Notes: generated by a model not told the origin, from the sequence alone. 64,000 bases of DNA from an uncultured Lentisphaeria bacterium (GCA_905211485.1 CAJMAW010000001.1:254-64253); one strand, 5' to 3'; counted from the first letter of the stretch, positions 19,721 through 52,957 are shown. Numbers and translations are program-made.

Positions 19721-19811
19721 TGGCGGAGAGAAGGAGATTCGAACTCCTGGTCCGGAAAAACCGGACAACGGTTTTCGAGACCGCCGCCTTCGACCGCTCA
19801 GCCATCTCTCC
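19721..19811 (-). tRNA. tRNA-Ser (anticodon CGA), CCA encoded
   Basis: Reverse complement reads GGAGAGATGGCTGAGCGGTCGAAGGCGGCGGTCTCGAAAACCGTTGTCCGGTTTTTCCGGACCAGGAGTTCGAATCTCCTTCTCTCCGCCA. It has a long variable arm and the anticodon loop CTCGAAA. Confidence 0.93.
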
Positions 19812-20238
19812 GTTCCAATGATGATGGAAGACATAATATGCCTCCTGTAAAACATTTTTTCAAGTCATCCGCCGGGAAAATCCTCTGAATCTGTCCTGAA
19901 AAAAACTGTTTGATAAAACGATCCGCAGGACTATATTACATTCCCTGAGCCGCACTTCCTCCCTGCAGCGGAGAATTTGCGGAAGTTTGCAGGAATCTGA
20001 AAAAGTTTTGTGCAGGAAAATTTTTCCGGAGGGACTCCCTCTCCTTTAGGCTCCTCTTCCGCCGTCACTCCGTCTCCGTTCGGAGGACGGGTGAGAACCG
20101 GGACATTTTGTGCGCGCGGCGCCTTCTCTTCCTCCCCGTGCGCATGACGGACCCCGGATCTCGGGAAAAGGATGCTTCTTTGAAAGTGAAAAATCTTGCG
20201 GATGGTGACGGGGGAAGGGAAAGGACTGTTTTTTTCCG

Positions 20239-21234: not shown

Positions 21235-21236
21235 CT

Positions 21237-23147: not shown

Positions 23148-24271
23148 AAAAAATGAGTTTCCCCAGACTCAAAGCTTTGATGGCGAAGGAAACATGTCAG
23201 ATTTTCCGGGATCCCGGAAGCATTCTGGTGGCCTTTGTCCTGCCCGTGATCCTGATCATCATCTATGCCTATGCGGTTTCTCTTGACATGAACTGTCTGA
23301 GAATCGGGCTTGTGATTCAGGATGAAGGCAGTGCCGTGCGCGCTCTGGCGGGCGCCTTTGTCAGCGATCCTTTTCTGGAGGTGAAGGTCGATACGCGCAG
23401 GGAAGCGTTTGAAAAAGAGCTGATGAGCACGGAACTCCGCGGGATTGTCGTCATTCCCCCCGACTTCTCCCGGAAACTGGAGCAGGGGATTTCCATCCCC
23501 CCGCTGCAGGTCATTGCTGACGGAAGCGAACCCAATACGGCAAAATATGTGTCGAACTACGCTTTCGGCGTATACCGGAACTTTCTGGAGCAGAATTCCA
23601 TGCTGCGCGGGACGGGGAAGCGTCAGGATGTCTCTGTCGAAAGCCGGGTCTGGTACAATCCCCAGCTGGAGAGCAGGGATTTCCTTCTCCCGGGAGCCCT
23701 CGCCCTCATCATGACCGTCACCGGAACTCTTCTGACTGCGCTGGTCATTTCCAGAGAATGGGAACGCGGAACCATGGAGGCGCTTCTCACCACTTCCGTG
23801 ACCCGCGCCGAACTGCTGCTCGGGAAACTCATCCCGTATTTCATTCTGGGAATGCTTTCGATGATCATGTCCGCGGCGGGAATCATTTTGGTTTTCGGCG
23901 TGCCGTTCCACGGGTCGCTGCTGCTGCTTTTCAGTGTGGGAGCGGTCTTCATGCTGACGGCTCTGGGGCTGGGACTGCTGATTTCGACCGTTGCGCGCAA
24001 TCAGTTCGTTGCCTGTCAGCTGGCACTTCTCCTCGCCTTCATGCCCACACTCATGCTTTCCGGTTTCATTTTTGAAATCAACTCCATGCCGGGTGCAATT
24101 CAGATCCTGACGAAGATCATTCCGGCAAAATACTTCATCTCCTGTCTGCACAGCCTTTTCCTTGTGGGAAATGTCCGGGAGATCCTGATCCCGAACGTGA
24201 TCTTCATGGCCCTTGTGAGCGTGCTGCTCATTCTCCTGACTTTCTGGAGAACCCGCCGGAATCTGGAGTGA
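23144..24271 (+). CDS. ABC-2 type permease (YbhS-like)
   Basis: Start set at ATG 23144 (MKKMSFPRLKALMAKETCQIFRDPGS), forming an ATGA overlap with the ATPase stop. Large first periplasmic loop followed by 5 C-terminal TM segments. Confidence 0.88.
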   Translation: MKKMSFPRLKALMAKETCQIFRDPGSILVAFVLPVILIIIYAYAVSLDMNCLRIGLVIQDEGSAVRALAGAFVSDPFLEVKVDTRREAFEKELMSTELRGIVVIPPDFSRKLEQGISIPPLQVIADGSEPNTAKYVSNYAFGVYRNFLEQNSMLRGTGKRQDVSVESRVWYNPQLESRDFLLPGALALIMTVTGTLLTALVISREWERGTMEALLTTSVTRAELLLGKLIPYFILGMLSMIMSAAGIILVFGVPFHGSLLLLFSVGAVFMLTALGLGLLISTVARNQFVACQLALLLAFMPTLMLSGFIFEINSMPGAIQILTKIIPAKYFISCLHSLFLVGNVREILIPNVIFMALVSVLLILLTFWRTRRNLE

Positions 24272-24543
24272 GAAATGAAAGACGGCTTCCCCCCCCGGAA
24301 ACAGCCTTTTTCCCCATTCCCCGCCCCCCCCTCCCGCGTAAACCGGGAAGGAATGCCTGAGAAGATATATGGAATGCCTGAAGAAAAAGAGAGAAATGAA
24401 GAACATGAAAGAAAATATAAGGATGAAAACGGGATCCGTCCCTGAATCCTTGAATCATTCTGAATCATCAGGAAGAAGTTAAGACGTGAAGGACCCGGGA
24501 AACATCACTTTCCCCGAGTCATTGGAAGGAGTATTTGGAGTCA

Positions 24544-28771: not shown

Positions 28772-30397
28772 ATGCGTGAAGAACAGCAGCAGAAAAACAC
28801 TCTGGATTCGTTGACCGAGCTTTTCGTGAGACGGAATCCCATGCGCTGCGCCTGCGTCACAATGACCGGGAGACAGAAACTCTGTTACGCCGCCGGTTTC
28901 CTCCTTCTTCTCTTCCTTCTGAAATTCCGCTGGGACTGTTTTGTGTTTCTTGTGAGCCTGTTTCTGATGCTCTGCTACGGCGCAGCCGCACTGCTGCGGA
29001 TGGGAGCGGCGCTGTTTTCCCTGGCGGGAAGCGGAGAGGTCCGTTTTGCGCGGGAGGAAACCAGGCGGACTCCCGATGAAGACCTGCCCGTCTATACCCT
29101 TCTTCTCCCGCTCTACCGGGAATCCGCCGTGGCGGAAAAAATTCTGGCGCGGATCGGAAGACTGGATTATCCGAAGGAAAAACTGGATGTGAAACTGCTC
29201 CTGGAAGCGGATGATTCCGAAACGCGCGCCGCACTTCAGAGACGTCCTCTGCCCGTCTGGTGCGAAATCGTGAATGTCCCGGACGGGCGTCCGCGGACCA
29301 AACCGCGCGCCTGCAATTACGGGCTCGCAGCTGCACGGGGGAAATACTGCGTCATTTATGATGCGGAGGACGCTCCTGAACCGGATCAGCTCCGGAAAGC
29401 CGTCCTTGCTTTTGAGAAGGAGGATTCGGACGGCAGACTTCTCTGCGTCCAGGCGAAACTCAATTATTACAATGCGCGCCAGAACTGGCTGACGAAGTTT
29501 TTCACCGTGGAATACAGCACGTATTTTGATCTGACTCTGGGCGGTCTTCAGCGATTCCGTCTTCCCATGCCGCTCGGCGGCACGTCCAATCACTTCAAGA
29601 CGCGCGAACTTCGGGAAATCGGGGGATGGGATCCCTTCAACGTCACGGAAGACTGCGACCTGGGAATCCGGATTTACGAGGACGGCTACCGGACCGTGCT
29701 GCTCGATTCCACCACCTGGGAGGAGGCCAATTCCCGCCTCTGGAACTGGATGCGCCAGCGTTCCCGCTGGGTGAAGGGGTTCATTCAGACGCATCTTGTC
29801 CATTTCAGGCATCCGCTGGAGACGATCCGGAGACTGAGCCTGCGCGGAGCTGCGGGGTGTTACATTCTTGTGGGCGGGTCCGTGCTGATGATGCTGCTGA
29901 ATCTGGTGTACTGGCCGCTGATTTTGCTGTACGGGGTTCTTCTGATTCACGGGATGGCTTCCGGGGAATCGCTGATGTCTTTGATGACGGGGCCGCATAC
30001 GGGGGAGGAACTGTATCGGGGGATTCAGATCGGGAATTTTTCCATCCGTGCGTGGCCGCTGATTTATGCGGGGGAGGGGGAGAATGTGTTTCAGTCGCTG
30101 ATGTCGCAGGTGTTTTTCTGCGGGAGCGTGCTGTTGTTTCTGTCCAATCTGTTTCTTGTGCTGGTGCATCTGGCTGCGTGTCTGCGGAGGAGATTTTATT
30201 TTCTGATACCGTGGGCGCTGCTGATGCCGTTTTACTGGGTTCTGATTTCCATCGGCGCGTGGAAGGGAGCCTGGCAGTTTGTCACGAATCCCTTCTACTG
30301 GGAAAAGACGATTCATGGACTGGATCACGGAACAAAATGGAATGCAATGGGATATACAGGAATAGAACATCATGGAGTCGAACATGCGGAACCTTGA
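28772..30397 (+). CDS. Membrane-embedded family-2 glycosyltransferase, processive beta-glycan-synthase type
   Basis: Two N-terminal and at least four C-terminal TM segments flank a GT-A domain. Motifs are YDAEDAP (DxD), VTEDCDLG (TED) and [10 protein letters not shown] (Q/RxxRW). Confidence 0.88.
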
Positions 30398-31115
30398 ATC
30401 CGGAGGAAAAAGCCGACCGTTTACATTGATTGAACTGCTTGTGGTGATTGCGATCATTGCACTGCTGGCGGGCATGCTCCTCCCGGCTCTGAGCGCGGCG
30501 AGGGAGAAGGCGCGCCAGACCAGCTGTCTCAACAATCTCAAGCAGCTCTCCATCGGGATACGGACGTACCAGATGGATTACAAGGACAGTTTCCCCTCAT
30601 GGCTTTCGCGTCTGGAACCTGCCTATATCAAGGACGGCAAGCTCTTCGCCTGTCCCTCCGATCCCAAGAAAAATGCCAACGACGACGGAAACTACAGCGA
30701 CAGCACTTGGAAACGCTCCTCCAACCGTCCCCCGGGATCCGACAGCTATGACACCATCGACGCCACCTTCGATTCCCCCGACAACAGTAAAGTCTGCCCC
30801 GCCTACGAACCCCCGAACGAAGATGTCCCCTGGGTCAGCTACATCTATGAATTCTGCGGCGGACTCTGGGCCTGGAGCGAAGGCGATTCCTACAATGAAG
30901 CGGGAGACAAGGTCCCACTGGGGGACGGTTCTTTTCAGAATGTCAAACTCAACGTTCTTCTCGCCCGTCCGGACTGGGCCAGCAAGCTCCCGATGATCCG
31001 CTGCTTCTGGCATGTCCGCAGCGAAAGTGTCCTGGAACCGGTGATGAATGTCTCCAGTCTGGGCAATGTGTTTTACAGCAAATCGGACTGGCAGCAGGGC
31101 ACCTGGTCGCCCTGA
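30372..31115 (+). CDS. Prepilin-type N-terminal cleavage/methylation domain protein (DUF1559-like, divergent C-terminus)
   Basis: [43 protein letters not shown]. Overlaps the GT2 stop by 26 nt (14 nt if the start is ATG 30384). Confidence 0.88.
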
Positions 31116-31325
31116 GCCTGAGCCGGGAAACTTTTTATATCAGAGTTGTGTCAAAGTAGATCAAAAGTTTTTTGTTTTTTTGAGATCAAAAGAAGTTATC
31201 CTCCTCCATTGCTTCCCTTGTCTCCCGTCCCGTTCCTTTCCTTCTCCGGAACGCAGTCGGAAAGATCCCGGGAAGAGGGAAAAAAAGAGAGCGGTGACGT
31301 GGGAGAAGAGGCAAGGCTCCTTCGG

Positions 31326-34145
31326 ATGACGATGAAATCAGACAAAATTTTTTCATATACTCTCTTATTCTTATGCGCCCTGTTTTTCCCGGCATTTTCC
31401 CGGGGAGCGGAGGAGTATGAATGGATTTTCCGCGACGCCGTGGGAAAGGAATCCGTGCTTGTTTCCATGCCGCAGTCCGGGGCGGAAGGGGAGGAAGCCG
31501 GAAATGAGAAGAACACTTCATCCGCGGAAGCTGCCGCTGAGGGAACTCCTTCCGGGAATGCTTCTCCGTCGGAGGAGAATTTGTCCGTTGCCTTCCGGAT
31601 GCCGGGGAACGTTCTGCTTTTCCGCCGTGCCGGACGTCTTTCCTTCCGGCATGAGAAAGAGCTTTTTGATTCTTCGCGCTTTTTTATGCGTGTCCGAGTC
31701 TCGGGACCTCTGAAGAAACCACTGAAAGCCTGGATTTTCGCGAAGGACAAGGACGGCAACTGGTATCAGACGGAAAAGGAATACACGCTTGTTCCCGGCG
31801 AATGGCAGACTCTGGAGGCTGTGACGGATCAGGCAGGGCGTCATTTTCTCCCCGTCGGGCACAATGGCGCCTGGAATGGATCCATTGCTTCCGGGGCCTA
31901 TGAGATCGGACTTTCCCTTTACGGAGAGGAAACGGAGTCCGGTCTGACCCTGGAATGTTCCGCGGCCGGATTTTCCGGGAAGAGGAAGCGTCCTCCGCTT
32001 CGGATAGTCCGCTGGGATCTTCCGGAAAAAATTGAGAAGAACCGGACCTTTGAATCGCGTTTCCAACTGAGCCGGGAGTATTTCAATCCCTTTGATCCGG
32101 ATGAGATAGAGGTGAATTATGAGATTGCGCTTCCGGGGAACACTCTTTCTGTCACGGCACCGTTTCATGAAATTTTCCGTCTTCCGGAAGAGTATTTCAA
32201 TCCTTTCCTTTTTCGGTGGAAGGAGATAGCAGCTTCTCTCAAGCTGACGCCCTCCTCCTCTTCTTCTTCAGCGCTTTTCAATCTGCGCTATCCCGCGTAT
32301 TACGGGCAGGATTTTGAAAGGTACCGGCATTTCACTCGGGAAAGCGTGTTTCCTTCCGGCGCGCCGTACTGGGCGTTCCGGATGATTCCGCATCAGAGCG
32401 GTCCGCTCCGTTTGCGTCTGCATGTGCTGGACCGGAGCGGGGAGGAAGCGGAGGAACTTTTTTCCGCATGGCAGGAAGTCCATGTGGAAGATTCCGCTTA
32501 TCCGGGAGTGATCCGGGTCAGCACGGAAAATCCCCGCTTCTATGAATTTTCGGACGGTTCCTTCTTCTATCCCGTCGGGCTGAACATTCACACGAATACG
32601 GACCTCCGGAGCGAATTCAAATTCAACTGGGGCCATCTCCCCGACCGCGGCACCTATGATTACGACGAATACTTTGAAGCCTGCGGCCGCGCCGGGATCA
32701 ATCTGATTGAAATCTGGATGGCTTCCTGGACCTACGCCCTCGAATGGGACAGCGCCAGAACCTATTATTACGGAGTCGGACGCTACAACATGGCGAATGC
32801 CTGGAAGCTGGATCATCTGTTCCGCCTTGCGCGTGACAACGGGATTTATCTCAACCTTGTTCTGGACGCGCACGGCAAGCTTTCCACCGCCAACGATCAG
32901 GAGTGGGAAGACAATCCCTACAACGCGCATGCCGCCTTCGCCGCTGCCAATGGCGGCTTTCTGAAACGCTCCCAGGATTTCTGGGTCCATCCGGATGCTC
33001 AGAGAGCCAATTGGAAACGGAACCGCTACATCCTGGCGCGCTGGGGCGCGGAAGCCAATCTTTACGCCGTGGAATTCTGGAGTGAAGTCAATCTCGTTGC
33101 AGACGGCTGGAACCGATACCGTCAGGGATATATGACCGCCTGGCACCGCAGAGCAGCGCGGGAGGTCCGGGAACTCGATCAAGGCGGACACTTGATGTCC
33201 ACGCACATCTGCGGCGATTCCGGCACCGTCCTGAGCATGCGCCAGCTCGGGATCGAGCCGCCCGAGTTCACCCATATCGCCTGCAACGCCTACCGCGGCA
33301 CGAACGTTCATATCGTCGACCAGCTCCGGAAACACGGGCGGGAGCTCTTCTTTGCTTCCAAGCCCATGATGATCATGGAGTACGGCGGGACAAACTTCGG
33401 GTCCAAGGACAATCAGGTCCGCGCGGACATTCACGGCGGACTCTGGGGCGCTCCGTTTACTTATCAGGCCGGGACTCCTTCGCTCTGGTGGCATGATTTC
33501 GTCCATATCAAAAACATGTATCCGCATTTTCTGGCGTTCTCCAAATTCATGAAAGGCGTGGACCTGCGAGAAGCGGGGAGTGTCCTGAGGGAAGGGCGGA
33601 TCCTTCTGGAGGAAAATGCGCCGCCTTTCACTGTCCCTTCCTGGAATCTGCCTCATGCGGGAACAAGTTCCGGAGGGGGGAAGGAGGACGCTTCTTCCCA
33701 CAGGGGGAACAGCAGGACAGAGGAGGACGGGGGATTCCGGCGCTTTCCGCATCAGTGGCAGCTTTCCTCTCTGCTGAACACCCCTGCTTCCCGCTATTTT
33801 GAACGCCGGATTGCGAGCTGGCTCCCCGCATCGGAGTACATGGATTTCTTTCTGATGCCTCTGGGATCGGACAAGGCGGTCGGCTGGGTGTATGACCGTG
33901 CTCAACTTCTGGTGTATCCAGCGGATCCCGGGGCGGCGCGTCTGTTCAGCGGAGTGCTTCTCCCGCTGGACCTGCCGCTGGAGCCGGGCGATTATCTGCT
34001 GCGTTTTTATGATACGCTGACCGGGGAGCCCGCATCTTCCTGCGTGATCCGTTGTGATGGAGCGCCGCGTCTGCTGAAACTGCCTCCGTTCCGTGTGGAT
34101 CTGGGGGTGAAACTCGATAAACTTCCCGGGGGGGGTGAAGCATGA
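31326..34145 (+). CDS. Secreted putative glycoside hydrolase (DUF5060-like Ig domain plus clan GH-A/GH5-like TIM barrel)
   Basis: Start set at ATG 31326 (MTMKSDKIFSYTLLFLCALFFPAFSRGAEE, signal peptide). FESRFQLSREYFNPFDPDEIEVNYEI is DUF5060-like. The barrel region includes FFYPVGLNIH...INLIEIWMASW. Candidate catalytic Glu residues lie in EFWSEVN and MIMEYGG. Confidence 0.7.
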   Translation: MTMKSDKIFSYTLLFLCALFFPAFSRGAEEYEWIFRDAVGKESVLVSMPQSGAEGEEAGNEKNTSSAEAAAEGTPSGNASPSEENLSVAFRMPGNVLLFRRAGRLSFRHEKELFDSSRFFMRVRVSGPLKKPLKAWIFAKDKDGNWYQTEKEYTLVPGEWQTLEAVTDQAGRHFLPVGHNGAWNGSIASGAYEIGLSLYGEETESGLTLECSAAGFSGKRKRPPLRIVRWDLPEKIEKNRTFESRFQLSREYFNPFDPDEIEVNYEIALPGNTLSVTAPFHEIFRLPEEYFNPFLFRWKEIAASLKLTPSSSSSSALFNLRYPAYYGQDFERYRHFTRESVFPSGAPYWAFRMIPHQSGPLRLRLHVLDRSGEEAEELFSAWQEVHVEDSAYPGVIRVSTENPRFYEFSDGSFFYPVGLNIHTNTDLRSEFKFNWGHLPDRGTYDYDEYFEACGRAGINLIEIWMASWTYALEWDSARTYYYGVGRYNMANAWKLDHLFRLARDNGIYLNLVLDAHGKLSTANDQEWEDNPYNAHAAFAAANGGFLKRSQDFWVHPDAQRANWKRNRYILARWGAEANLYAVEFWSEVNLVADGWNRYRQGYMTAWHRRAAREVRELDQGGHLMSTHICGDSGTVLSMRQLGIEPPEFTHIACNAYRGTNVHIVDQLRKHGRELFFASKPMMIMEYGGTNFGSKDNQVRADIHGGLWGAPFTYQAGTPSLWWHDFVHIKNMYPHFLAFSKFMKGVDLREAGSVLREGRILLEENAPPFTVPSWNLPHAGTSSGGGKEDASSHRGNSRTEEDGGFRRFPHQWQLSSLLNTPASRYFERRIASWLPASEYMDFFLMPLGSDKAVGWVYDRAQLLVYPADPGAARLFSGVLLPLDLPLEPGDYLLRFYDTLTGEPASSCVIRCDGAPRLLKLPPFRVDLGVKLDKLPGGGEA

Positions 34146-36838
34146 TGCCGGCGAAATATTCTGATTCTGATGCTTTGTCCGCATGGAGCCGCATTTTTTC
34201 TTTTCTGCTGCTTCTAGTGTTTTTCAGCGTTTTGGCCTCGGTCTTTTTCAGGGTTTCCGCGGCGGAGACTCCGGGAGACGGCAAGGAGGCTTTTCCCGCG
34301 CAGTCCCGGCAGCCGGAGTCTGAGGAAGGTCCGCCGCCCCTTCTTCCGTCGTCTGGTGAGCCGGGCGGCGTCCGAAGCGGGAAAGACGGCGGGGAGGAGG
34401 CCCCTGCCGCTTTCCCCTCCGCTGTCCCATGGCATTGCGGAGAGGCTCTTTACAGGCTGGAGGTGTTTCTTCCCGCATCCGGCAAAGCCGCGATTGCCGA
34501 CGACCGACGCATCTGCCTTCCCGCCGGATTCGGTCACGGGGTGAAAGTCTATGACGCATCGGGCCTGAAAATGCCTGCACATCAGTACTCCGACGGCGGA
34601 GTTCTTCTTCCTCCAGTAGACCGGGATTCTGTGCTTTATCTTTATTTCGGATTTTCCACCCCCTGCGAGCCGGAATCCATGCCGGACGCGCCTGGGAACG
34701 AAAGGCTGACCCTTTTCCAGAGCGAACAGCGCATGGCTTTGACTCCGGATCAGTGGCGTCCGACGGAAATATCCAAATGCAACGACGCCATCCGCAATAC
34801 CGCCCGTCATTCCAAACCTTGGCAGAAGTGCGACGGGGGAAAAGACTGCCCCCTTCTCCGCAACGTGTTTTCGCGCTGCCGGAATTCCCTGATGCCCTTC
34901 TGCGCCAGGAATGTGGCTTTCCGCGGATTTCATGCGAAGTCGGATCTGTATAAGACACCGTTCCCTTCGACTCTCAGCTGCTGCAAAACCTTTGCCATGC
35001 TTCCCGATTACGCACTTCTCCCGAAGAACCATTTCCCCTGCCGGAAAAATCAGACGGACTCCGCCCTGAGGAATTACTGGAAGGTTCGTGACCGCAACCT
35101 GGCGCAGATTGACCGGATCCGCCGGACCGATCCTGAAGAGGGCCTGGAAGAGACTCTCTTCGACGCTTTCAACGGGAATCCCCGGCGCCTGGAAAGCGGC
35201 CAGATTTTCCTGCCCAAGCGTCCCTTTGACACCGGCTGGCGCTTCACCGTTCTCTTCCGCGGGAATCTCTATGTTCCCGAGAGCGGTGAATATGAATTCA
35301 AAGTCAAGGCGAATTCCACCCGGATTCTGCGCATCGACGGGAAACGCGTGATCCGTTCCTTCGGCGAAACTCCGAACACCGAAATCATCGGGACGGAGGA
35401 ATCTGCCTGCATTCCGCTGGAAAAAGGGATTCATCCCCTGGAACTGGTCTATTGCAAACAGTCGGTGTCGACCTGGATTTCGGCTTCGTGGCGGAAGAAG
35501 GGGGAGGGGGATTTTGAAACGCTGAACGAAGAGAATTTTTCCCCCGCGACTCCGGCGGAACCCCTGTCTCTGAGCTCGCGGACGGGGCTCCGCTATCCGC
35601 TGCTGCTGCGTCATGATAAATACGCTCTGTACACGGGAAAATACGAAAAGTATTCTCTGAACGCCTTTGAATCCGCGGATGTGCCCGGCAATCCGGGAAT
35701 CCGTGCCTGGCGTCTGAACGGGAAGGAATATCCCGGGCAGATGAATGTGGTCGCGCTCAAGGAGGAAGCGGAGAATTCTTCCGCTGCGGGAAAGATGACT
35801 TCCGCTTCTCCGTCTGATGAAAAGGAGATGAAAATACAAAACGCGAACGATAACGGAAATGAAAGTGGAAGCGGGAATGGAAATGGGAATGGCAATGTGC
35901 TGTATGCTCTTCCGGATTCTCCGGATTTCGCGCCGCTTCCGATTTATCTTCCGGAGCGGAGCACGCCCCGGATTCCGGTTCGCCCGGATCTCTCGCTGAA
36001 GATCTGGGCGCCGTATTTTCTGTATGAGGACGAGACGCTGGATTTTTATACGGAAATTCGTTCGCGTCTTCCACTTGCGCTGAATGCGGGATTGAAGGCG
36101 TCGGCGGGAAGGAGCCTGACTTCTTCCCATGATGTGTTGAACCGTCCCCTGCTTCTTGCGGTGCCTTCGCTGCAGCAGGAGCATGTGGACCGTTTTGCGC
36201 AGGATGTGCTTCTGAAGTATCCGATGAAGGTGGACGGGGCGTCTTTCCGTTCGCAGCCTTCTTTTTCGGAATTTTCGCTGTTCATTCCCGGGCTGGAGTT
36301 TGAACGGAGGAAAGTGGCGGTGCTGCCGCTTCGTTTTCTCGGGCGTTTGAACTTTGCTGCAGATGGGTTTTACGATGGGGATATCCGGGTTGTTCCTCTT
36401 CTGCACCGTCCGACCCTGCATGATCTGAGAGCCTGGCAGCTGCCGAAAGCCATTTCCCGCGAATTCAATTCCGTGAAGAAGGTTCTGGTGATTGCCGAGG
36501 ATTTCGGTTCGTTCCGCGAAGATCTGGAAAAGGAACTGGCAAAAGACGCTGTGGCACTGGAATTCCTATCCTGGAAAAGGAGTCCGGCAGAGAGCGGGCG
36601 CGAGAGTCTGGAAAGCCTTCCCTCCCTTTTTGAAGGAATCCGGAAGAGTTCCGCTGATACGGCGCTTCTGATTCCCATGACTCAGTCCCGGCGTAAAACG
36701 GTTTCCATGCGTGATGAAGCGCGGGCGATCGCATTTCTTCTCCAGGCGCTGCGCGAACTTTCTTCTGTGCGTTCGATCAAGCTTGCGCCGCCGCTGCCCT
36801 CCCATCCTGATTTCGCGGATCCCGTTTCGGATGAATAA
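34142..36838 (+). CDS. Membrane-anchored or secreted PA14-domain protein with C-terminal SGNH-like region
   Basis: ATGA overlap with the upstream gene. N-terminal anchor IFSFLLLLVFFSVLASVFF. The PA14-like block is FTVLFRGNLYVPESGEYEFKVKANSTRILRIDGKRVI...HPLELVYCKQSVSTWISASWRKKG. The C-terminal region VLVIAEDFGS...ALLIPMTQS is reminiscent of the SGNH fold. Confidence 0.75.
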   Translation: MMPAKYSDSDALSAWSRIFSFLLLLVFFSVLASVFFRVSAAETPGDGKEAFPAQSRQPESEEGPPPLLPSSGEPGGVRSGKDGGEEAPAAFPSAVPWHCGEALYRLEVFLPASGKAAIADDRRICLPAGFGHGVKVYDASGLKMPAHQYSDGGVLLPPVDRDSVLYLYFGFSTPCEPESMPDAPGNERLTLFQSEQRMALTPDQWRPTEISKCNDAIRNTARHSKPWQKCDGGKDCPLLRNVFSRCRNSLMPFCARNVAFRGFHAKSDLYKTPFPSTLSCCKTFAMLPDYALLPKNHFPCRKNQTDSALRNYWKVRDRNLAQIDRIRRTDPEEGLEETLFDAFNGNPRRLESGQIFLPKRPFDTGWRFTVLFRGNLYVPESGEYEFKVKANSTRILRIDGKRVIRSFGETPNTEIIGTEESACIPLEKGIHPLELVYCKQSVSTWISASWRKKGEGDFETLNEENFSPATPAEPLSLSSRTGLRYPLLLRHDKYALYTGKYEKYSLNAFESADVPGNPGIRAWRLNGKEYPGQMNVVALKEEAENSSAAGKMTSASPSDEKEMKIQNANDNGNESGSGNGNGNGNVLYALPDSPDFAPLPIYLPERSTPRIPVRPDLSLKIWAPYFLYEDETLDFYTEIRSRLPLALNAGLKASAGRSLTSSHDVLNRPLLLAVPSLQQEHVDRFAQDVLLKYPMKVDGASFRSQPSFSEFSLFIPGLEFERRKVAVLPLRFLGRLNFAADGFYDGDIRVVPLLHRPTLHDLRAWQLPKAISREFNSVKKVLVIAEDFGSFREDLEKELAKDAVALEFLSWKRSPAESGRESLESLPSLFEGIRKSSADTALLIPMTQSRRKTVSMRDEARAIAFLLQALRELSSVRSIKLAPPLPSHPDFADPVSDE

Positions 36839-37036: not shown

Positions 37037-37282
37037 AGTTTTTTTTTGCCGTTGTTGCTCTGGGAAACATCTTTTTGCGTCCGAGCTTTTTCCCCCTTTC
37101 CGAGGGTCTCCGGCCATGTGGGGAAAATATTCTTTCCACTTCTGGCTGCATTGGAAAAAAATGAAAAACAGGCTATATTACAAGCTTGAGGTCTTCCGGA
37201 GCCTGTCGCCGTCTTTCCCGGATCGCGGGAGCTTGTGAGAAAATCCGGAAGGATGGATCAACATACAAGGAAAGCATTTTGC

Positions 37283-39364
37283 ATGATGGAAAAGTACTAC
37301 CTGGGAATTGATATCGGTTCAACCACGTTCAAAGCGGTTCTGCTGACGGAGGACGGGAAGGTCTTCCACAGTACATACCAGCGGACGAAGCCTGTTGATT
37401 CCGGGAGACTGACCTGCAGCGGGCGCTGTTCGAGCTGCGGCGCGTGCAACATGGGATCCGTGAAAAAGATTGTGGAGGCATTTCTGGCGGAGGCGGGAAT
37501 TGCTCAGGAAGCGGTATGCTGTACAGTGGTGACCGGCAGTCAGATTGTTGAGGATACGCGTCGTTTTATCCATTATGATTTTCAGGTCAGCGAAGTTTCC
37601 GCCCATGTGGCGGGAGCGCGTCATTTTCATCCGGAGGTGAAAGCGATTCTGGATGTCGGGGGGCAGGACAGCAAGGCGATGATTTACAACGAGGCCATGG
37701 GAATGTGGACCTCGAAAATGAGCGGGATCTGCGCCGCGGGGACCGGGGCGTTTCTGGACAGCGTCGCGGCGAAGCTCAATGTTCCTGTGGAACAGATGGC
37801 CGAGAAGGTGGATTATGATTCGGATCTGGAGTTTTCCAGCATCTGTGCGGTGCTCAGCGCTACTTCCATCAACAAATTCAAGAATCGTTTTCCTCTCGGT
37901 CAGATCATAGCGGGAGCCTGCCGCGCGCAGGCGAGGACCATTATTTCCGGTGTCGGGGAACTGCTGTTCAATTATAAGGGCGACATTGTGTTTCAGGGGG
38001 GAGTCGCTTCCAACCGGGCCGTCGCGCATTATCTGCATGAGATCACGAACAACAATGTGATTATTCCGGAATATCACCGTGTGATGGGTGCGCTCGGCGC
38101 GGCCTGTCTGGCCCGGCAGTATGCGGGGCTGAAGGACCGTCTGGTGCTGAAACGGGTGGAGTATCCCTCTGCCGAAGTGCCGCTCAAGTCCGTGGCGATG
38201 CGTTCCAACATGACGCGCAAGGACTTTTTCTCCAAGAGCAACATGCCCACCGTGTGGCGGAATCTCTTTTTCCCCACTGAGATTCTGAACGCTCTCGGCG
38301 TGAAAATGCTGACCCTTGAAACCTATGCTGCGCTGTTTGCCAGAAATTCCAAGCGTGTGAAAAAAGCCTTTGACATAGCGGCATACAAGGGATTTGCGGG
38401 GGAAACCTGTTCCTTTCTGCGTGTTCTGGAGGGAATTGAACTGAATCCGCCCGGATTTGCGGTGTCCACCTCCCAGCCCTGCCAGCAGGGGGAGAGAATC
38501 TTTCAGGACCTGGCGCGGCAGTATCATTTCACGGACAAGTTTTATTCTCTTCACACACCGGTGAACATGAATGATGAAAATGCGGTTGAAACCATCGCGG
38601 AGGGGCTGCAGAAATCGGTTTCCCTGATGGAAAAGGCGCTGAATCTGAAGATGGATCCCGGCCGTTTGTCGGAAGCGTGTCATTTTTCAAATCTTGCGGC
38701 GGAGATTTCCAAGAAGTGCAACGAGCTCCGCTGGTACAGCCCCCCGCTCATCCGCGGGGCTGAAGGAATTTACAACGCCATCCTCTTTTCCCAGCTCTGG
38801 GGCCGCAGGGAACTGATTGACATCCAAAAACAGTTTTATGAGGAACTTCTTGCCAGAAAAGAGATTATGGAAAAACGCTATCGCATTGAGGATACGCATC
38901 GTCTGCTCTGGCTCCATCTGCCGCCTTTTTACGACACAAAGATTTTGGATTATCTGGAATCCGGATGCAATGCGCCGATTGTTTTTGAAGAGGTCAACTT
39001 CGTCGACTGGCTGGATCTGGATCCGGACGATCCGTACCGTTCGCTGGCACGGAAGCTCCTGACTGTCGGGTATCTGGATCCCAAGCTGAGGGTCCATTAC
39101 ATCAGTTCCAACGCCGAAAAGGCCAAGCTGAACGGCTGCGTGCTCTACAACCACGGTTTCGGGCGCTGCTCTCTTGCAGACAGCTGTTTCACCAAGCATC
39201 TCCGCGAAGAATTGAGAAAAGTCAATCTCCCGCTCCTGATCCTGGACGGGGACTGCATGGATCCGACGACCGATCCCTGCAGCACTTCCACGAAAATTAC
39301 TGCGTTTGTCGAATCCTTGAATTCCAAGAAGTATCACAATATTTTCGGGCCGGTGAAATCATAA
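37283..39364 (+). CDS. Fusion protein: BcrAD/BadFG (HgdC-type) activase ATPase plus a 2-hydroxyacyl-CoA-dehydratase-family domain
   Basis: N-terminal ASKHA motifs are YYLGIDIGSTTFKAVL, ILDVGGQDSKAMIY, GICAAGTGAFLD and FQGGVASNRAV, with a Cys-rich insert CSGRCSSCGACNMG. The C-terminal ~390 aa is HgdB/D-component-like (GETCSFLRV...NHGFGRCSLADSCF). Start ambiguous (GTG 37235, ATG 37253 or ATG 37283). Confidence 0.8.
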   Translation: MMEKYYLGIDIGSTTFKAVLLTEDGKVFHSTYQRTKPVDSGRLTCSGRCSSCGACNMGSVKKIVEAFLAEAGIAQEAVCCTVVTGSQIVEDTRRFIHYDFQVSEVSAHVAGARHFHPEVKAILDVGGQDSKAMIYNEAMGMWTSKMSGICAAGTGAFLDSVAAKLNVPVEQMAEKVDYDSDLEFSSICAVLSATSINKFKNRFPLGQIIAGACRAQARTIISGVGELLFNYKGDIVFQGGVASNRAVAHYLHEITNNNVIIPEYHRVMGALGAACLARQYAGLKDRLVLKRVEYPSAEVPLKSVAMRSNMTRKDFFSKSNMPTVWRNLFFPTEILNALGVKMLTLETYAALFARNSKRVKKAFDIAAYKGFAGETCSFLRVLEGIELNPPGFAVSTSQPCQQGERIFQDLARQYHFTDKFYSLHTPVNMNDENAVETIAEGLQKSVSLMEKALNLKMDPGRLSEACHFSNLAAEISKKCNELRWYSPPLIRGAEGIYNAILFSQLWGRRELIDIQKQFYEELLARKEIMEKRYRIEDTHRLLWLHLPPFYDTKILDYLESGCNAPIVFEEVNFVDWLDLDPDDPYRSLARKLLTVGYLDPKLRVHYISSNAEKAKLNGCVLYNHGFGRCSLADSCFTKHLREELRKVNLPLLILDGDCMDPTTDPCSTSTKITAFVESLNSKKYHNIFGPVKS

Positions 39365-39525
39365 AATCCCTTCGGAATCACTTTCCCTCATTTGCCGGGC
39401 ATTGTTTCCGGAAGGGAAGAGAGAGGGCAAGAAGGGGGGAAGGCCTTCTTCTTTTTTGTTGACTTCAGTTGACTTCAATTGAATGAACTTTCGTTTTTGT
39501 GAATGGATGAAGTGAGGTGACAGCC

Positions 39526-39891
39526 ATGATTAGGAAACAGTCGGATTATTTCCCGGAGCGCCGTCATGAAATGCGAGGCGGCAGAGGCGATGCCCTGTTC
39601 CAGCATATCTGGAAGCCCGGTGAAGAAATGAAATCGTGCACAAGGCTTTTTTCAAAAATCATTCTCGAGCCCGGAAATTCGATCGGTTTTCATGTCCATG
39701 AAGGGGAGGAGGAAATCTTTTTCGTTCTCAGGGGGCGTGCGGAAGTGGATGACAACGGCGTCCGGAAGATTCTCGAACCCGGAGACAGCATTCTCACACG
39801 CGGCGGGGAAGGGCATTCCATCGCCGCTTCCGGGAATGAGACTCTGGAAGTTCTTGCCGTCATCGGCACCTATCCCGGGAAATCTTCCTGA
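39526..39891 (+). CDS. Cupin-domain protein
   Basis: GNSIGFHVHEGEEEIFFVLRGRAEVDDNG...PGDSILTRGGEGHSI matches the two-motif cupin pattern. ATG 39526 has GAGGTG 8 nt upstream. Confidence 0.8.
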   Translation: MIRKQSDYFPERRHEMRGGRGDALFQHIWKPGEEMKSCTRLFSKIILEPGNSIGFHVHEGEEEIFFVLRGRAEVDDNGVRKILEPGDSILTRGGEGHSIAASGNETLEVLAVIGTYPGKSS

Positions 39892-44208: not shown

Positions 44209-45072
44209 TCAGCGGAAGGAGGCGATGTTCTTTCCCAGCGGACGGCTGACTCTCACGGAGGAGGGAATCACAACCCTCTGGAATCCGAATTCCGGGATTC
44301 CGAAGAGCATTGCGTAGCCGGGCCTGTAATGCTCCGGAATTCCCAGAAAGCGGAAGACTTCCGGAGCAGCCGAATGAAAGGCGGACATGGCTCTTCCGCA
44401 CCAGAGCGTCCCGATGTTTCTGCTCTGCGCATACAGTTCAAAATAGCTCAGCGCGATGATCGGGTCGATTTCGGCGCACGGCGCGTCCTCCGGGCTTGAC
44501 ACCAGCAGAAGGTGCGGCGCCCTACGGAAAATCGGATCCTCTCCTTTCAGAATCGCCTGTTTCGACGGCGCGAATTTCATTGCCGGGGCGGAGTCCGGAG
44601 CTTTTTCCAGCAGTTCAAGAACTTTGGAATTGGTGTACTCGCGCAGTGTGTCCATGCTTTCCAGATTGTCGACCACGGCAAAATGAAGACGGTGATTGTT
44701 GACGCCTGTCGGGGAGAAACGCATGGCGTCCAGCAGTTCCCGGAGCGTTTCCTGCGGCACGTTTTCGCGCTTGTAATGGCGGAAGGAGCGCCGGCCCCGC
44801 AGCAGATCCCGCATTCTTTCCGGATCCGGGAAGATCCCGGGGGCCGGACAGCTGTCCGGAGAAATGCCGTCGATGGAAAGAGCTCCTTCCGGACAGATCA
44901 TGACGCAGTGTGCGCAGTGAATGCATCTGGCCGATCCTCCGTCCTCTGCCTCTTCCGGATATCCTCCCTCTTTCCCCATGGAAAGAACGCGGTTGACGCA
45001 TTTTTCAACACAGAGTCCGCAGCGTATGCATTTCCCATGGTCGATTTTCAGTTCGATGGATTCTTTATACAT
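44209..45072 (-). CDS. Nitroreductase-family protein with N-terminal 2x[4Fe-4S] ferredoxin domain
   Basis: CIRCGLCVEKC and CIHCAHCVMICP, followed by RRSFRHYKRENVPQETLRELLDAMRFSPTGVNNH (nitroreductase fold). Confidence 0.85.
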   Translation of the reverse strand: MYKESIELKIDHGKCIRCGLCVEKCVNRVLSMGKEGGYPEEAEDGGSARCIHCAHCVMICPEGALSIDGISPDSCPAPGIFPDPERMRDLLRGRRSFRHYKRENVPQETLRELLDAMRFSPTGVNNHRLHFAVVDNLESMDTLREYTNSKVLELLEKAPDSAPAMKFAPSKQAILKGEDPIFRRAPHLLLVSSPEDAPCAEIDPIIALSYFELYAQSRNIGTLWCGRAMSAFHSAAPEVFRFLGIPEHYRPGYAMLFGIPEFGFQRVVIPSSVRVSRPLGKNIASFR

Positions 45073-46800: not shown

Positions 46801-47838
46801 TTACAGCCATCCCGGCACGGCATTGAGTCCGTATCTGCGGAGGAAGTCCGCGGCTGTCCTCAAGTCGTTGTCGGAGGGAGGGGTGATTCCCTCCATGAAA
46901 TGCCCGGCGATCCCGAGCGCGGCATATTTGGCCCCTGCCAGCCGATGATAGACAAGAAGCCGGACTCTCCACGGATTCAGACCCCTGAGAAATTCCCCGC
47001 TCTGCCTCAGATCCTTTTCGGAATCGTTGATTCCGGGGATGAGGGGAATGCGGATTTCGATTACGGCTCCTTCACGGGCAAGGAAGAGCAGATTTTCCCG
47101 GATGAGAGCGTTTTCCTGTCCGGTCAGGGCTTCATGGACTTCGGGATCGGGGTGTTTCCAGTCGGCGAGGAAGAGATCCGTATACGGGAGAAGGTCTTCC
47201 AGCGCTCTCCGCGGGGCGAAACAGCTGCTGTCCAGGGCGGTATGGATTCCCTGCGTCCGGCATGCGGAGAAGAATGCCCGGCAGAACTCCGCCTGAAGAA
47301 GCGGTTCGCCTCCGGAAAGAGTCACTCCGCCTCCGGATTCGTCATAAAATTCCCGGTCGCTCAATGCCTCTTCGAGCATTTCGGACACGCTTTTTTCCTT
47401 CCCGTACAGTCGGAGTGCTCCGGAAGGGCATACCTCTTCACATTTCCCGCATGCGGTACAGAGTTTCCGGTGGAATTGGTGGCGGGTAAATGCAGGCGAT
47501 TCCTCATCCCATGCAGACTTCCGTCCTGCGGACCGCTGGGTTTGCCCGAGGAATCTCTGCGTTCCCGGGAGGATCCTATGGGCTCCGGAGGGGCAGACTT
47601 TCTCGCATTCTCCGCAGAGGATGCAGTTCTGTTCATAAAAGGCCATCTGCGCAGTGGGGGAAAAGGTTTCGGGGTTGTGGCACCAGCGGCAGCGGAGAGG
47701 GCAGCCCTTCAGGAAAAACGTGGTCCGGATTCCGGGACCGTCGTGTACGGAAAAGTGGCGGATGTCCGCAAGAACGGCTCTCCTCTCCACCACGGCGGGG
47801 GCGGGGTGAGGGGAGGGACGGCGAAGGGGGAACACCAT
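46801..47838 (-). CDS. Glycyl-radical enzyme activating enzyme (radical SAM, with two auxiliary ferredoxin-type clusters)
   Basis: CPLRCRWCHNPE (CX3CX2C). CILCGECEKVCPSGA and CTACGKCEEVCPSGA. GGVTLSGGEPLL. Start set at ATG 47838, preceded by AAGGAGAAGGAGAAG. The ORF remains open upstream to 48303, so the true start is uncertain. Confidence 0.85.
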   Translation of the reverse strand: MVFPLRRPSPHPAPAVVERRAVLADIRHFSVHDGPGIRTTFFLKGCPLRCRWCHNPETFSPTAQMAFYEQNCILCGECEKVCPSGAHRILPGTQRFLGQTQRSAGRKSAWDEESPAFTRHQFHRKLCTACGKCEEVCPSGALRLYGKEKSVSEMLEEALSDREFYDESGGGVTLSGGEPLLQAEFCRAFFSACRTQGIHTALDSSCFAPRRALEDLLPYTDLFLADWKHPDPEVHEALTGQENALIRENLLFLAREGAVIEIRIPLIPGINDSEKDLRQSGEFLRGLNPWRVRLLVYHRLAGAKYAALGIAGHFMEGITPPSDNDLRTAADFLRRYGLNAVPGWL

Positions 47839-48085
47839 CTTCTCCTTCTCCTTTTCTTTTCCCTTGATTTCCCCTGATTCGTTTTCTTTTTCTTTTTTTC
47901 CGTTTCCGTCTCCATATCCGTTTCCGCGGCTGTTTTCTTTTCCTTCCAGAAAGTCTTTTTTCGCCTCTTTCCCATAGTTTCCGGAAGGGAGGGGGGGAGG
48001 AAGGGAGTCCGGAGGATGAGGAAATTCCCCTCCCGACAGGGGAAGAGAAACGGACGGCGAATCCGTGCAGGACGCTTCCTTTGAT

Positions 48086-50365
48086 TCATTCCCGGATTCT
48101 TGAGGCTCGTTCAATGTAGGCATCCTGCTCCTTTCGCGAGAGATCATTCCAGCGGACGTTCCAGCCGCAGACGCGGACCTGGAGCGATTCATATTTTTCC
48201 GGGTGTTTCTGTGCATCCAAAAGTGTTTCCTGATCGAAGAGGTTGAAATGAAGAGCAATCCCGTTTCTCTTTCTGTAGATTTCAAGGAGTGAGAAAAGAA
48301 CATTCAGTCCATCTTCTCCGGAGACTGTGGCGGGATGCATCATGACATCGAGGGAAAAGTCCCCCGGGAAACGGGAGGAATCGATTTCCGTCACGGATCG
48401 CAGCAGTGCGGCGGTTCCGTTGACGTCTGTCCCCATGACGGGAGAAAGGTTTTTGGAGAGTTCCTCCCCTTTCTTTCTCCCGTCCGGCGTGGCGGAAGTT
48501 TTTTCTCCGAGTGTGATGAACGATCTTGCCGCATGCCCGCTCGCCATCCAGAATCCGCCCCGGCTGTTGGGGCGCAGATTGATTTTGGAACTGAGAAAAT
48601 TTGCCAGCATTTCGGCAAGAAAATCACTTTCCTTGTCTCCGTTTCCGTACTTTGCCGAGTCGTGCCGGATCCGGAGGCGAAGCGCTTCGCGGCCCTCCCA
48701 GTTGCTCCGGAGCGTTTCCGCCATTTCGGAGAGAGAGAGAACTTTTTCCCTGAAAACGAATTTCCGGATCGCCGACAGGGAATCGACCGCGCTTGCGAAA
48801 CCGGAATAAAGCATGAGAGTGTTGTTGTAGAGACAGCCGGTGGAAAAGGCGTCGCGCGCCGTTTCGAGACTGTGTTTGATCGCGGCGCAGAGCACTGCCC
48901 CGGGATTGATCGCCGAAAGATGTTTTTCAAATTCGTTGACCTGTCCGACGGTAATTTCAATCATTTCATTCACGAAATGCAGGTAATTCCGGTAAAAAGA
49001 ATCGAAGTCGCCGATATTTCCGATCTCATCACCCCGGATTCCCGAGTCAATTCCCGTCATCGGATCCCTTCCGTTGTTCAGCAGAAGTTCGATTCCTTTG
49101 GGCAGGTTCAGATAGCAGGGCGCTGTGGCGTTGGAGGCGCCGGCAGCGCCGAATTCATAGCAGCCGCAGACATGGCAGGTACGCGCTTCCTCTTCCGTAT
49201 GCCCGCAGGACATCATCGCGCGTTTGATCCCGTCCTCCGAGACAAAAACCAGACTGCTGTTTCCATGCCGGATCATCTCGAATGCCTTCAGAAGAAAGTC
49301 GCGCGGCGTCCGGGCGGAATATTTCAGCTGGATCTTCGGCGAAGTGATTGAAAGGGAATCGAAGACGTCCAGAATCAGAAAGGAGAGTTCGTTGATTACG
49401 CTTGAAGAGTCTTTCTCCGTTCCCCCCAGATAGAAGGGGTGTCCCCAATAATTATTGATGGAGGCGAACTGAAGCATGAAGCAGCCCAGAAGTCTCCGGA
49501 TCTCCTCTTCCGTGAAGGTTCCGGAACTCAGGTCCCGTTTATAATACGGATATAGAATGCGGTCCAGATTCCCCAGCGAACGCACCTGCATGTGATCGAC
49601 ATGTTCGCCAAAAAGAAAATAAAGAAAGATGAGCAGGAGCGCCTCGTACAGATTTCCCGGTGCGGCGCAGGAAAGGTGACGCAGTGCGGTGGCGAGCCTG
49701 GAGATTCTGCTGCTGCTTTTGTTCCCGTCCGCTTTTCCTCCTCCTCCGCGGCTGGAGAGGTCTTGCTCCTGCCCCGCCCTTTTTTCCGCATAGCGGGCGA
49801 AGCGCAGGAGAGTTTCGAGAATGGCGCTGCAAGTAATTTCGACTGATTCAAAATAGATCTCGGATTCCGGAGTGTTTTTGTTTTCCAGACTCCTTTGGGC
49901 ACGGTATTTCTTTGCCCGTTCGAGCAGGCCTTTGAATCCCAGGCTGAGAATGTCGTCCCAGTCCGGCACGGAGTGATCGAAGTCTTTCCATACGGCATAG
50001 ATTCCGGCGCGGTTGAATTCCGCGATCCTGGAGCTCGTTTCCGGGAGGAGGCGTTCATTGACTTCCGTCTCCCAGCGCCGGAGCAGGGGTGCCGCGGGGC
50101 GTCTGTCCCGGTTCCAGCATCCGAATGCGGGAAAGGGATCCGCCGCGTGGACGCCCGTCTGCATGTTGCGGCAGAGATATTCAAAGACTCTGGCCTTGAG
50201 CAGAGGGTGGGGAAGTTCCTTCAGGGAATCGGCGAGAAGGAGAACATCGTTGCGGAGAGTTTCGTTGTCCCTGCCTGTTTCCGGGTCGAGAAAGCATTCC
50301 GGATTGCGGAACTTGGAAAGCAGGATCTTTTTTTCCTCCGGAGAAATGGGAAATTCGTTCTGCAT
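48086..50365 (-). CDS. Glycyl-radical enzyme, PFL2/eliminase-like, substrate unknown
   Basis: The C-terminal motif LQVRVCGWNVRWNDLSRKEQDAYIERA has the RVxG glycyl-radical pattern. The candidate thiyl loop HVCGCYEFG fits G-C-x-E. 759 aa. Confidence 0.85.
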   Translation of the reverse strand: MQNEFPISPEEKKILLSKFRNPECFLDPETGRDNETLRNDVLLLADSLKELPHPLLKARVFEYLCRNMQTGVHAADPFPAFGCWNRDRRPAAPLLRRWETEVNERLLPETSSRIAEFNRAGIYAVWKDFDHSVPDWDDILSLGFKGLLERAKKYRAQRSLENKNTPESEIYFESVEITCSAILETLLRFARYAEKRAGQEQDLSSRGGGGKADGNKSSSRISRLATALRHLSCAAPGNLYEALLLIFLYFLFGEHVDHMQVRSLGNLDRILYPYYKRDLSSGTFTEEEIRRLLGCFMLQFASINNYWGHPFYLGGTEKDSSSVINELSFLILDVFDSLSITSPKIQLKYSARTPRDFLLKAFEMIRHGNSSLVFVSEDGIKRAMMSCGHTEEEARTCHVCGCYEFGAAGASNATAPCYLNLPKGIELLLNNGRDPMTGIDSGIRGDEIGNIGDFDSFYRNYLHFVNEMIEITVGQVNEFEKHLSAINPGAVLCAAIKHSLETARDAFSTGCLYNNTLMLYSGFASAVDSLSAIRKFVFREKVLSLSEMAETLRSNWEGREALRLRIRHDSAKYGNGDKESDFLAEMLANFLSSKINLRPNSRGGFWMASGHAARSFITLGEKTSATPDGRKKGEELSKNLSPVMGTDVNGTAALLRSVTEIDSSRFPGDFSLDVMMHPATVSGEDGLNVLFSLLEIYRKRNGIALHFNLFDQETLLDAQKHPEKYESLQVRVCGWNVRWNDLSRKEQDAYIERASRIRE

Positions 50366-52845: not shown

Positions 52846-52957
52846 CTGCAGTATTTCCGATGTTTTTCCCCCTTCTCATTTTGTATGCCGCCGCCCCCTG
52901 TGGTGAGTGTTCAGGGCGGCGGCTTGCAGAGAGAACGGGGAGGAAAAAACGACAGGA

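Follow-up and report, generated by a model that had tools for sequence, protein, structure and literature searches.

A single-gene activase-HGD-D fusion of Lentisphaerota, a predicted self-contained member of the benzoyl-CoA reductase/2-hydroxyacyl-CoA dehydratase superfamily

In a 64,000-nucleotide stretch of DNA from an uncultured Lentisphaeria bacterium (GCA_905211485.1, CAJMAW010000001.1:254-64253; hereafter the window), one gene encodes a chain of 693 amino acids (aa) that holds both an activase ATPase and a catalytic HGD-D domain, halves that are normally split over three proteins. Domain searches, alignment of metal ligands, structure prediction and comparison of loci make it on balance probable that this fusion is a self-contained member of the superfamily of benzoyl-CoA reductases (BCR) and 2-hydroxyacyl-CoA dehydratases (HAD), with an ATP-dependent "archerase" and a catalytic, alpha-type [4Fe-4S] domain in one chain, and that it works as a homodimeric ketyl-radical or reductase enzyme. 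Some of biology's most reducing chemistry is carried out by BCR/HAD enzymes, and a reaction is known for very few of them. The fusion is the complete machine in minimal form, encoded by one gene, and, as a predicted homodimer, would be convenient for studying the structure and mechanism of ATP-coupled electron transfer; it is also a conserved gene, without pathway context, in a poorly studied phylum of gut and environmental bacteria. A contig 99% identical to the window (CAKUDG010000001.1) belongs to an uncultured human-gut Victivallales metagenome-assembled genome (MAG).

Both Pfam domains are present at full length, BcrAD_BadFG at aa 7-277 (PF01869, model positions 1-271 of 271, E = 1.5e-30) and HGD-D at aa 328-679 (PF06050, positions 2-342 of 342, E = 7.4e-41). 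The first-pass annotation, made from the sequence alone, had described a complete activase fused to one such catalytic domain, and this description holds, with all expected cluster ligands conserved. An AlphaFold2 model of the single chain, built from a 74-sequence alignment, had a mean pLDDT of 86.9 and a pTM of 0.88, and showed the inter-domain linker as coil over aa 287-301, followed by the first HGD-D helix. The open reading frame (ORF) is open from a GTG at 37235 and ends at 39364; the start was placed at the ATG-ATG at 37283 because the N-terminus there fits the homologues, all of which share MxxYYLGIDIGSTT.

Both sequence and structure searches placed the N-terminal domain among the acyl-CoA dehydratase activases. 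It passed the NCBIfam model for these proteins (TIGR00241, 129.7 bits, cut-off 125.4), and its closest relatives in both phmmer and Foldseek were HadI (PDB 4eht, phmmer E = 8.8e-26) and HgdC (1hux, 2.3e-20), with Foldseek TM(target) values of 0.83-0.88. The nucleotide-binding motifs DIGSTT, DVGGQDSK and QGGVA, for phosphate and adenosine, are invariant across the family alignment and in the sister clade described below.

To type the HGD-D domain, members of the family and the stand-alone relatives nearest to them were combined in a profile, which was run against PDB chains. Catalytic chains were matched strongly (HadB alpha, 7.7e-46; BzdO, 3.8e-40; DCCP, 6eno, 1.1e-33; MbdO, 3.8e-28) and accessory chains weakly (BzdN, 3.6e-16; HadC, beta, 3.5e-12; MbdN, 3.7e-12), and the fold matched HadB by Foldseek with TM(target) up to 0.81. 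By these comparisons the domain is assigned to the catalytic alpha type and not to the beta type.

In the BzdNO structure, Cys95, Cys128 and Cys380 ligate a [4Fe-4S]-OH2 cluster, Glu65 and His131 are the acid/base groups, and the coordination in HadB is the same (PMC11971306). In the fusion, C376, C400 and E346 align to Cys95, Cys128 and Glu65 of BzdO, and C629, which aligns directly to the third cysteine of HadB, is the likely equivalent of Cys380, since HadB and BzdO share their coordination. None of C376, C400, C629 and E346 varies among 74 family members or within the sister clade. The position of His131 is occupied by G403, and HadB likewise lacks this histidine. The C-QQGER signature after the second ligand, where HadB has C-NQV, was found only in the Lentisphaerota family and its Desulfobacterales sister clade, and differs in the distant fusion P0134 and in stand-alone relatives. 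The cluster cysteines, a check of which had been suggested in the earlier reading, were thus all mapped by alignment to HgdC/HadI, HadB and BzdO, and none is missing from the set C150, C188, C376, C400 and C629 (Table 1).

Table 1. Features of the fusion gene and its immediate surroundings, in window coordinates.
Feature	Position	Strand	Remarks
Sigma-70-like promoter match	37151..37179	+	weak candidate upstream of fusion gene; TTGGAA-17-TATATT, 9/12 matches
Fusion gene	37283..39364	+	693 aa: activase ATPase, linker, HGD-D catalytic domain
ASKHA "archerase" ATPase domain	37283..38140	+	N-terminal, aa 1-286; full-length Pfam BcrAD_BadFG
Cys4 insert CSGRCSSCGAC	37415..37447	+	aa 45-55; C45, C49, C52, C55 (C-x3-C-x2-C-x2-C); extra metal site predicted
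GICAAGTGA, start of cluster helix	37724..37750	+	C150, predicted first bridging [4Fe-4S] ligand; aligns to NDKCAAGTG of HgdC/HadI; invariant
SSICAV	37835..37852	+	C188, predicted second bridging [4Fe-4S] ligand; aligns to SSTCTV of HgdC/HadI; invariant
Inter-domain linker	38141..38242	+	aa 287-320 (34 aa), between the two Pfam domains
HGD-D domain	38243..39361	+	C-terminal; catalytic (alpha/BzdO/HadB) type by profile search and Foldseek
LTLETYA	38309..38329	+	E346, equivalent of BzdO catalytic Glu65; direct alignment LTLETYAA/LTGEPYAA; invariant in family and sister clade
ETCSFLR	38402..38422	+	C376, predicted first [4Fe-4S] ligand (BzdO Cys95 equivalent), by alignment
SQPCQQGER	38471..38497	+	C400, predicted second [4Fe-4S] ligand (BzdO Cys128 equivalent), by alignment; QQGER signature
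HGFGRCSL	39152..39175	+	C629, predicted third [4Fe-4S] ligand; direct alignment to HadB third Cys (NRSCKLM)
DGDCMDPTTDPCST	39245..39286	+	C658 (in DGDC) and C666, end of last beta-strand; both invariant in family and sister clade
Hairpin with T-run	39429..39453	+	terminator-like, between fusion gene and cupin gene
Monocupin gene	39526..39891	+	121 aa, TM1287-like; HxH...E and second His metal-binding motifs; Cupin_2 E = 3.3e-18

An extra cysteine cluster in the ATPase domain had also been noticed earlier, and it proved to be an invariant, family-specific insert at aa 45-55. It corresponds to a gap in HadI and HgdC and sits between strand 3 and helix 1, and neither the 74 family members nor the sister clade show any change in its four cysteines. 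P0134, a distant fusion whose domains come in this same order, has the variant CAISCDTCMHPC (C-x3-C-x2-C-x3-C); none of the scanned PlsA-like proteins, reverse-order fusions and stand-alone relatives has the motif. The loop had low AlphaFold confidence, in line with a cofactor site. The insert is predicted to form an additional metal site, which could be an auxiliary Fe-S cluster for electron entry or could hold Zn in a structural role. Zn is a serious alternative because a structural Zn site rich in cysteine is known from ASKHA kinases of the ROK family.

Two further cysteines, C658 and C666, lie in the HGD-D domain. C658 is shared with many stand-alone relatives and is not found in HadB, BzdO or DCCP. 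From their position and conservation, these residues may possibly provide a fourth cluster ligand or belong to the second sphere.

The two-domain architecture was found in all 120 best database matches, which are about 690-720 aa long and 60-83% identical to the fusion (all but one at 65% or more). The names given among these 120 matches were Lentisphaeria, Victivallales and Oligosphaeraceae, and the NCBI product name was "2-hydroxyacyl-CoA dehydratase". In contigs taken from one genome per species, the architecture was the same in each of the best 80 loci, whose proteins are 62-99% identical. At least 80 species-level genomes carry the fusion; they are labelled Victivallales, Lentisphaeria or Kiritimatiellia, and for most the label is Lentisphaerota. 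Conservation at 62-83% identity across species-level genomes indicates a selected and therefore functional enzyme. Clustering of a library at 50% identity left the family with a single full-length representative, and the only other relative above 50% over the whole unit was P0122 (54%), the next full-length relatives being only about 30-33% identical. The Lentisphaerota family is therefore compact, evolves slowly and stands apart from other sequences.

The surroundings of the gene were surveyed in about 90 loci, 8 kilobases (kb) to either side, by tblastn with each domain and by clustering of neighbours. No second copy of the ATPase or HGD-D domain was detected by tblastn in these loci or in the whole 64-kb window, and no CoA-transferase or acyl-CoA dehydrogenase was present among the Pfam-scanned ORFs and called genes around the fusion gene in the window, in agreement with the first-pass annotation, which had reported no partner genes there. 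Neighbour clustering revealed no conserved CoA-transferase or dehydrogenase across the loci, and no gene family in more than 15 loci apart from a cupin and one antisense-ORF artefact. The clustering is a coarse screen, in which the true gene was lost to antisense shadow ORFs in 19 of 84 loci (the "cluster 1" artefact), and tblastn served as a backup. Because no second copy was found by tblastn and no true neighbour family but the cupin is shared by more than 15 loci, the fusion gene is a stand-alone unit. In contrast, the nearest stand-alone HGD-D relative sits in an operon of two HGD-D genes and an activase gene. The possibility that the window holds a fragment of a classical operon, in which case orthologous loci should have contained a CoA-transferase or second subunit gene, was ruled out by the same searches in the roughly 90 loci.

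A sister clade was found in Desulfobacterales. P0122 is a 1375-aa protein with the domain order AMP-binding, PP-binding, BcrAD_BadFG and HGD-D, and three more distinct proteins (P0271, P0272 and P0273, 54-60% identical to P0122) have the same architecture, which is therefore no assembly accident. Members of the P0271 cluster come from Desulfobacterales or Deltaproteobacteria MAGs. The four-domain proteins (P0122, P0271-P0273 and P0390) are 52-54% identical to the fusion over the whole 690-aa unit and have an identical Cys4 insert, all cluster ligands, E346 and C-QQGER; they differ in their N-terminal adenylation and carrier-protein domains and in belonging to another phylum. All carry the carrier serine motif GFDS[MI]. 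Their genes also stand alone, and no cupin lies 3' of them where the sequence extends (L088 and L091; L005 and L089 end at or just past the gene). In L091 (GCA_024226555.1, JAAELO010000380.1), the genes at 14699-24374, downstream of the four-domain gene, are one for an unannotated 312-aa protein and then, about 1.7 kb away, a beta-oxidation-like set: a short-chain dehydrogenase/reductase, a thiolase paired with a DUF35/ChsH2-type protein, three acyl-CoA dehydrogenases and a CoA ligase.

Because this sister clade, with an identical catalytic signature, fuses the unit to an adenylation and carrier module, the shared unit is suggested to act on a phosphopantetheine-bound acyl thioester; read as a Rosetta-stone fusion, the architecture suggests that the substrate is a carboxylic acid bound in this way. 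By sequence, the adenylation domain belongs to the generic ANL ligases. Its nearest database relatives are polyketide synthase loading modules and proteins with AMP-binding, carrier and PlsC-acyltransferase domains, its best PDB matches are 4-coumarate-CoA ligases and luciferases, and its best NCBIfam match, long-chain fatty-acid-CoA ligase, is below the cut-off. The adenylation and carrier domains offer a direct experimental handle on the substrate.

P0134, a 759-aa Desulfobulbaceae protein (L086, Logan SRR13052532 contig, 1-4407), is 31-34% identical to the fusion, depending on the alignment. Its gene follows IorA/IorB-like 2-oxoacid:ferredoxin oxidoreductase genes and is followed by a GNAT acetyltransferase gene. 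E346 is replaced by P and QQGE by QHML; since these active-site residues differ, P0134 is probably a different enzyme, and it was not used for inferring function.

In the proposed mechanism, two fusion chains would dimerise to give two ATPase and two HGD-D domains, as in MbdONPQ (9gai), with C150 and C188 from both chains ligating a single [4Fe-4S] cluster that bridges the two N-terminal ASKHA domains. This cluster would be reduced by ferredoxin or flavodoxin as an external donor of low potential, and ATP binding and hydrolysis would push the electron into the C-terminal [4Fe-4S] cluster, which would be held by C376, C400 and C629 and would have an open iron beside E346. The open iron would bind or face the thioester carbonyl, and a ketyl radical or the delivery of a hydrogen atom would start the reaction. 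The thioester is probably phosphopantetheine-linked, on an acyl carrier protein (ACP) or as acyl-CoA. The term "self-activating", used for the fusion in the earlier reading, is a loose one, as the ATPase would still need its external donor. The single catalytic-like domain had been presented as an anomaly, and this view is not upheld: the catalytic component of double-cubane cluster proteins (DCCP) is homodimeric (PMC7317905), and a fusion homodimer would match the 2:2 stoichiometry of BCR (9gai).

We tend to favour a net reduction coupled to ATP, or a reductive elimination, over a redox-neutral dehydration, because an ATPase tethered permanently and 1:1 is more reminiscent of the stoichiometric reductases (BCR, PlsA and Ger) than of the catalytic dehydratases, whose activator acts transiently. 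Several points weigh against this picture as a whole. The step from fusion to reductase is an argument from analogy only. The carrier-protein reading depends on sister-clade proteins that are about 54% identical to the fusion, and no adenylation-carrier gene was found in the 64-kb window or near Lentisphaerota fusion genes. The adenylation domain, as a generic ANL ligase with matches below the cut-off, points to no particular acid. In addition, C658 might act as a fourth cluster ligand, which would abolish the open iron site.

A more speculative proposal, which we regard as rather unlikely in its entirety, is that the family and its sister clade are the first ATP-driven radical enzymes of the BCR/HAD type to act on an acyl thioester tethered to a carrier protein instead of a CoA ester, that the Cys4 insert is a built-in auxiliary Fe-S electron acceptor for the docked ATPase, that the role in Lentisphaerota is a housekeeping, O2-independent acyl alpha-functionalisation or reduction, and that the cupin processes the product in one sub-clade. 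The enzyme might, for example, interconvert 2-enoyl and 2-hydroxyacyl thioesters or catalyse a reductive dehydroxylation. If true, the carrier-protein reading would widen the range of ketyl-radical or Birch-type chemistry to substrates bound to ACP. A literature search returned no paper on this family and nothing specific on this architecture, on an ACP-dependent HAD-like enzyme or on a link to Lentisphaerae.

Fusions in this superfamily are already known as such, among them those of cluster I and class III (PMC7317905). The plasmalogen synthase PlsA and the glycerol ester reductase Ger are fused members with assigned, non-CoA reactions (PMC12838417, PMC13159169), so that the first-pass statement that fusions of this kind lack an assigned reaction is right for the present family and wrong for the superfamily. 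What is new here is the order of a Cys4-bearing ATPase followed by an alpha-type HGD-D domain, its occurrence as a stand-alone conserved gene in Lentisphaerota, and the sister clade with adenylation and carrier domains.

Among the other explanations, one is that the fusion is a classical 2-hydroxyacyl-CoA dehydratase whose beta subunit and CoA-transferase are encoded elsewhere in the genome, serving fermentation of amino acids or of lactate by the acrylate pathway. Both domains have their best sequence and fold matches in Clostridioides difficile (R)-2-hydroxyisocaproyl-CoA dehydratase (HadBC with HadI; PDB 3o3m and 4eht; Foldseek identity 17% for HGD-D and 26-27% for the ATPase), the NCBI product name agrees, and the two bridging-cluster cysteines, the three-Cys [4Fe-4S] site and the conserved glutamate of the alpha subunit are shared. 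The fusion differs in being one chain and not three proteins, in having no beta subunit and no CoA-transferase context, and in its extra Cys4 insert. The alpha, beta and activase operon of the nearest stand-alone relative shows the locus to be expected, whereas the survey of loci and of the window found no second HGD-D and no conserved CoA-transferase or dehydrogenase neighbour. Classical HAD activators are separate proteins that act sub-stoichiometrically, which also argues against a classical enzyme here. Membership of the classical HAD group was rejected (HadB equivalog NF052455, 45.5 bits against a cut-off of 750; no adjacent second HGD-D, no separate activator and no CoA-transferase). Furthermore, acetate and formate are the sole products reported for the one reference species of Lentisphaerae from the gut (PMC9403272). 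A classical dehydratase is thus considered quite improbable.

The reading of the fusion as a BCR-like enzyme that dearomatises an aryl thioester by Birch-type reduction likewise has little chance of being correct. It would fit the profile matches to BzdO and MbdO, the alignment of E346 with Glu65, the BCR-like permanent coupling of the ATPase, and, in the sister clade, both the 4-coumarate-CoA ligases among the PDB matches and the occurrence in Desulfobacterales. In class I BCR (BzdNOPQ and MbdONPQ; 8s02 and 9gai), two ATPase and two HGD-D protomers are permanently associated, 1:1:1:1 in 9gai, and the catalytic subunit has the same three-Cys [4Fe-4S] cluster with an open site and a glutamate. 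Unlike these enzymes, the fusion is a predicted homodimer and not an assembly of four different subunits, has no BzdN-type double-cubane partner subunit and has glycine in place of His131, and the Lentisphaerota loci show no aromatic-degradation context. Class I membership was rejected on the basis of the single fused gene without nearby paralogues and of NCBIfam BCR models scoring 26-60 bits, far under cut-offs of 313-578.

Very little probability is given to a half-size analogue of PlsA and Ger that would make ether or vinyl-ether lipids by reducing lipid esters. Among the fused members, a reaction is known for these two alone, and they work independently of CoA; like the fusion, PlsA/PlsR and Ger join archerase and BCR/HAD-type reductase in a single polypeptide, and they reduce a carbonyl other than that of a CoA thioester with ATP (PMC12838417, PMC13159169). 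The conserved, stand-alone and housekeeping-like character of the fusion gene would suit such a role, as would the fatty-acyl-type loading modules and Aas-like acyltransferase fusions among the relatives of the adenylation domain. PlsA and Ger, in contrast, are about 1400 aa long and have the BBD architecture of two BcrAD_BadFG domains followed by DUF2229 (PMC13159169), with further fragments. The fusion was excluded from their group by its one ATPase domain, its lack of DUF2229 and the BLASTP E of 0.67 between its HGD-D domain and the PlsA-like protein P0149, whereby its HGD-D domain has no detectable similarity to the reductase part of these enzymes; its ATPase domain is 30-35% identical to PlsA-like proteins, no closer than to HadI/HgdC (26-29%, Foldseek alignments).

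The idea of a DCCP fused to its reductase, like the class III proteins, and reducing small molecules is extremely unlikely despite the fused DCCP/reductase polypeptides described in PMC7317905 and the profile match to 6eno: DCCP (with its reductase DCCP-R) and E. coli YjiM/YjiL are of the same superfamily but have for themselves the seven-Cys motif CX19CX18-19CX29CX166-170CX32-34CX32C, with six ligands of an [8Fe-9S] cluster (PMC7317905), of which the fusion has cysteine at only three of seven positions and other residues at the rest, such as N572, and NF040772 scored 37.4 bits against a cut-off of 350, while the class III proteins are about 550 aa long and occur in Firmicutes (PMC7317905). 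A comparison with YjiL/YjiM had been proposed at first; no close relation was found (YjiM, BLASTP, 31 bits), and that relationship was rejected.

The cupin gene begins at an ATG within an ORF open from 39517, 161 nt beyond the end of the fusion gene, and the gene is also called in an identical contig. Its best solved relative is TM1287 (PDB 1o4t, 3.5e-23), a structural-genomics protein named "putative oxalate decarboxylase". A cupin gene follows the fusion gene directly on the same strand in 32 of the 78 loci with room for one, with gaps there of mostly about 5-30 nt. In a neighbour-joining tree of the fusion proteins, the cupin-linked loci fall in one half, with some losses, and the basal half and the sister clade have no cupin. 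The linkage proposed in the first-pass annotation is therefore real but clade-specific, and it says little about the chemistry; the cupin is an accessory partner gained in one sub-clade, outside the core machine. In the window, the terminator-like hairpin and T-run are followed by a repeated TTGACTTCA(G/A)TTGA element just 5' of the cupin gene (39429-39500, + strand). Since a hairpin is present here while orthologous gaps are mostly short, the cupin may have its own promoter in this genome. The next commonest neighbour is a LysA-type decarboxylase gene (with DapF too in a few loci), which in some genomes lies 3' of the cupin gene.

The sigma-70-like match upstream of the fusion gene is a candidate only, as such sites are no more numerous in the region than in shuffled sequence. 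Directly upstream, at 30372-36838 (+), lie genes for a prepilin-type N-methylation protein (N_methyl and SBP_bac_10) and two proteins of about 900-1000 aa, one with PA14, an arrangement that is not conserved in other loci. In general, the neighbourhoods of the fusion gene are unrelated between species. A 287-aa fusion of a 2x[4Fe-4S] ferredoxin domain and a nitroreductase-family domain is encoded at 44209-45072 (-); it is a possible candidate for the low-potential redox partner, though it is not conserved beside the fusion gene elsewhere.

A glycyl-radical enzyme of 759 aa (PFL-like and Gly_radical; 48086-50365, -) adjoins a radical-SAM activase of 500 aa with two ferredoxin-type clusters (46801-48303). 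This pair (46801-50365), about 7.5 kb downstream of the fusion gene and about 7 kb from the cupin gene, shows the organism to be of the strict-anaerobe type, with several radical enzymes. Further along, a sigma-70 factor is encoded at 59325-62207 (-), with regions 1.2-4 only at aa 686-949, behind an N-terminal extension of about 680 aa, and the AT skew around this gene is strong (-0.39 at 60-62 kb). Two mirror ORFs of about 1370 aa, at 52907-57022 (+) and 52958-57085 (-), had a Pfam match on neither strand.

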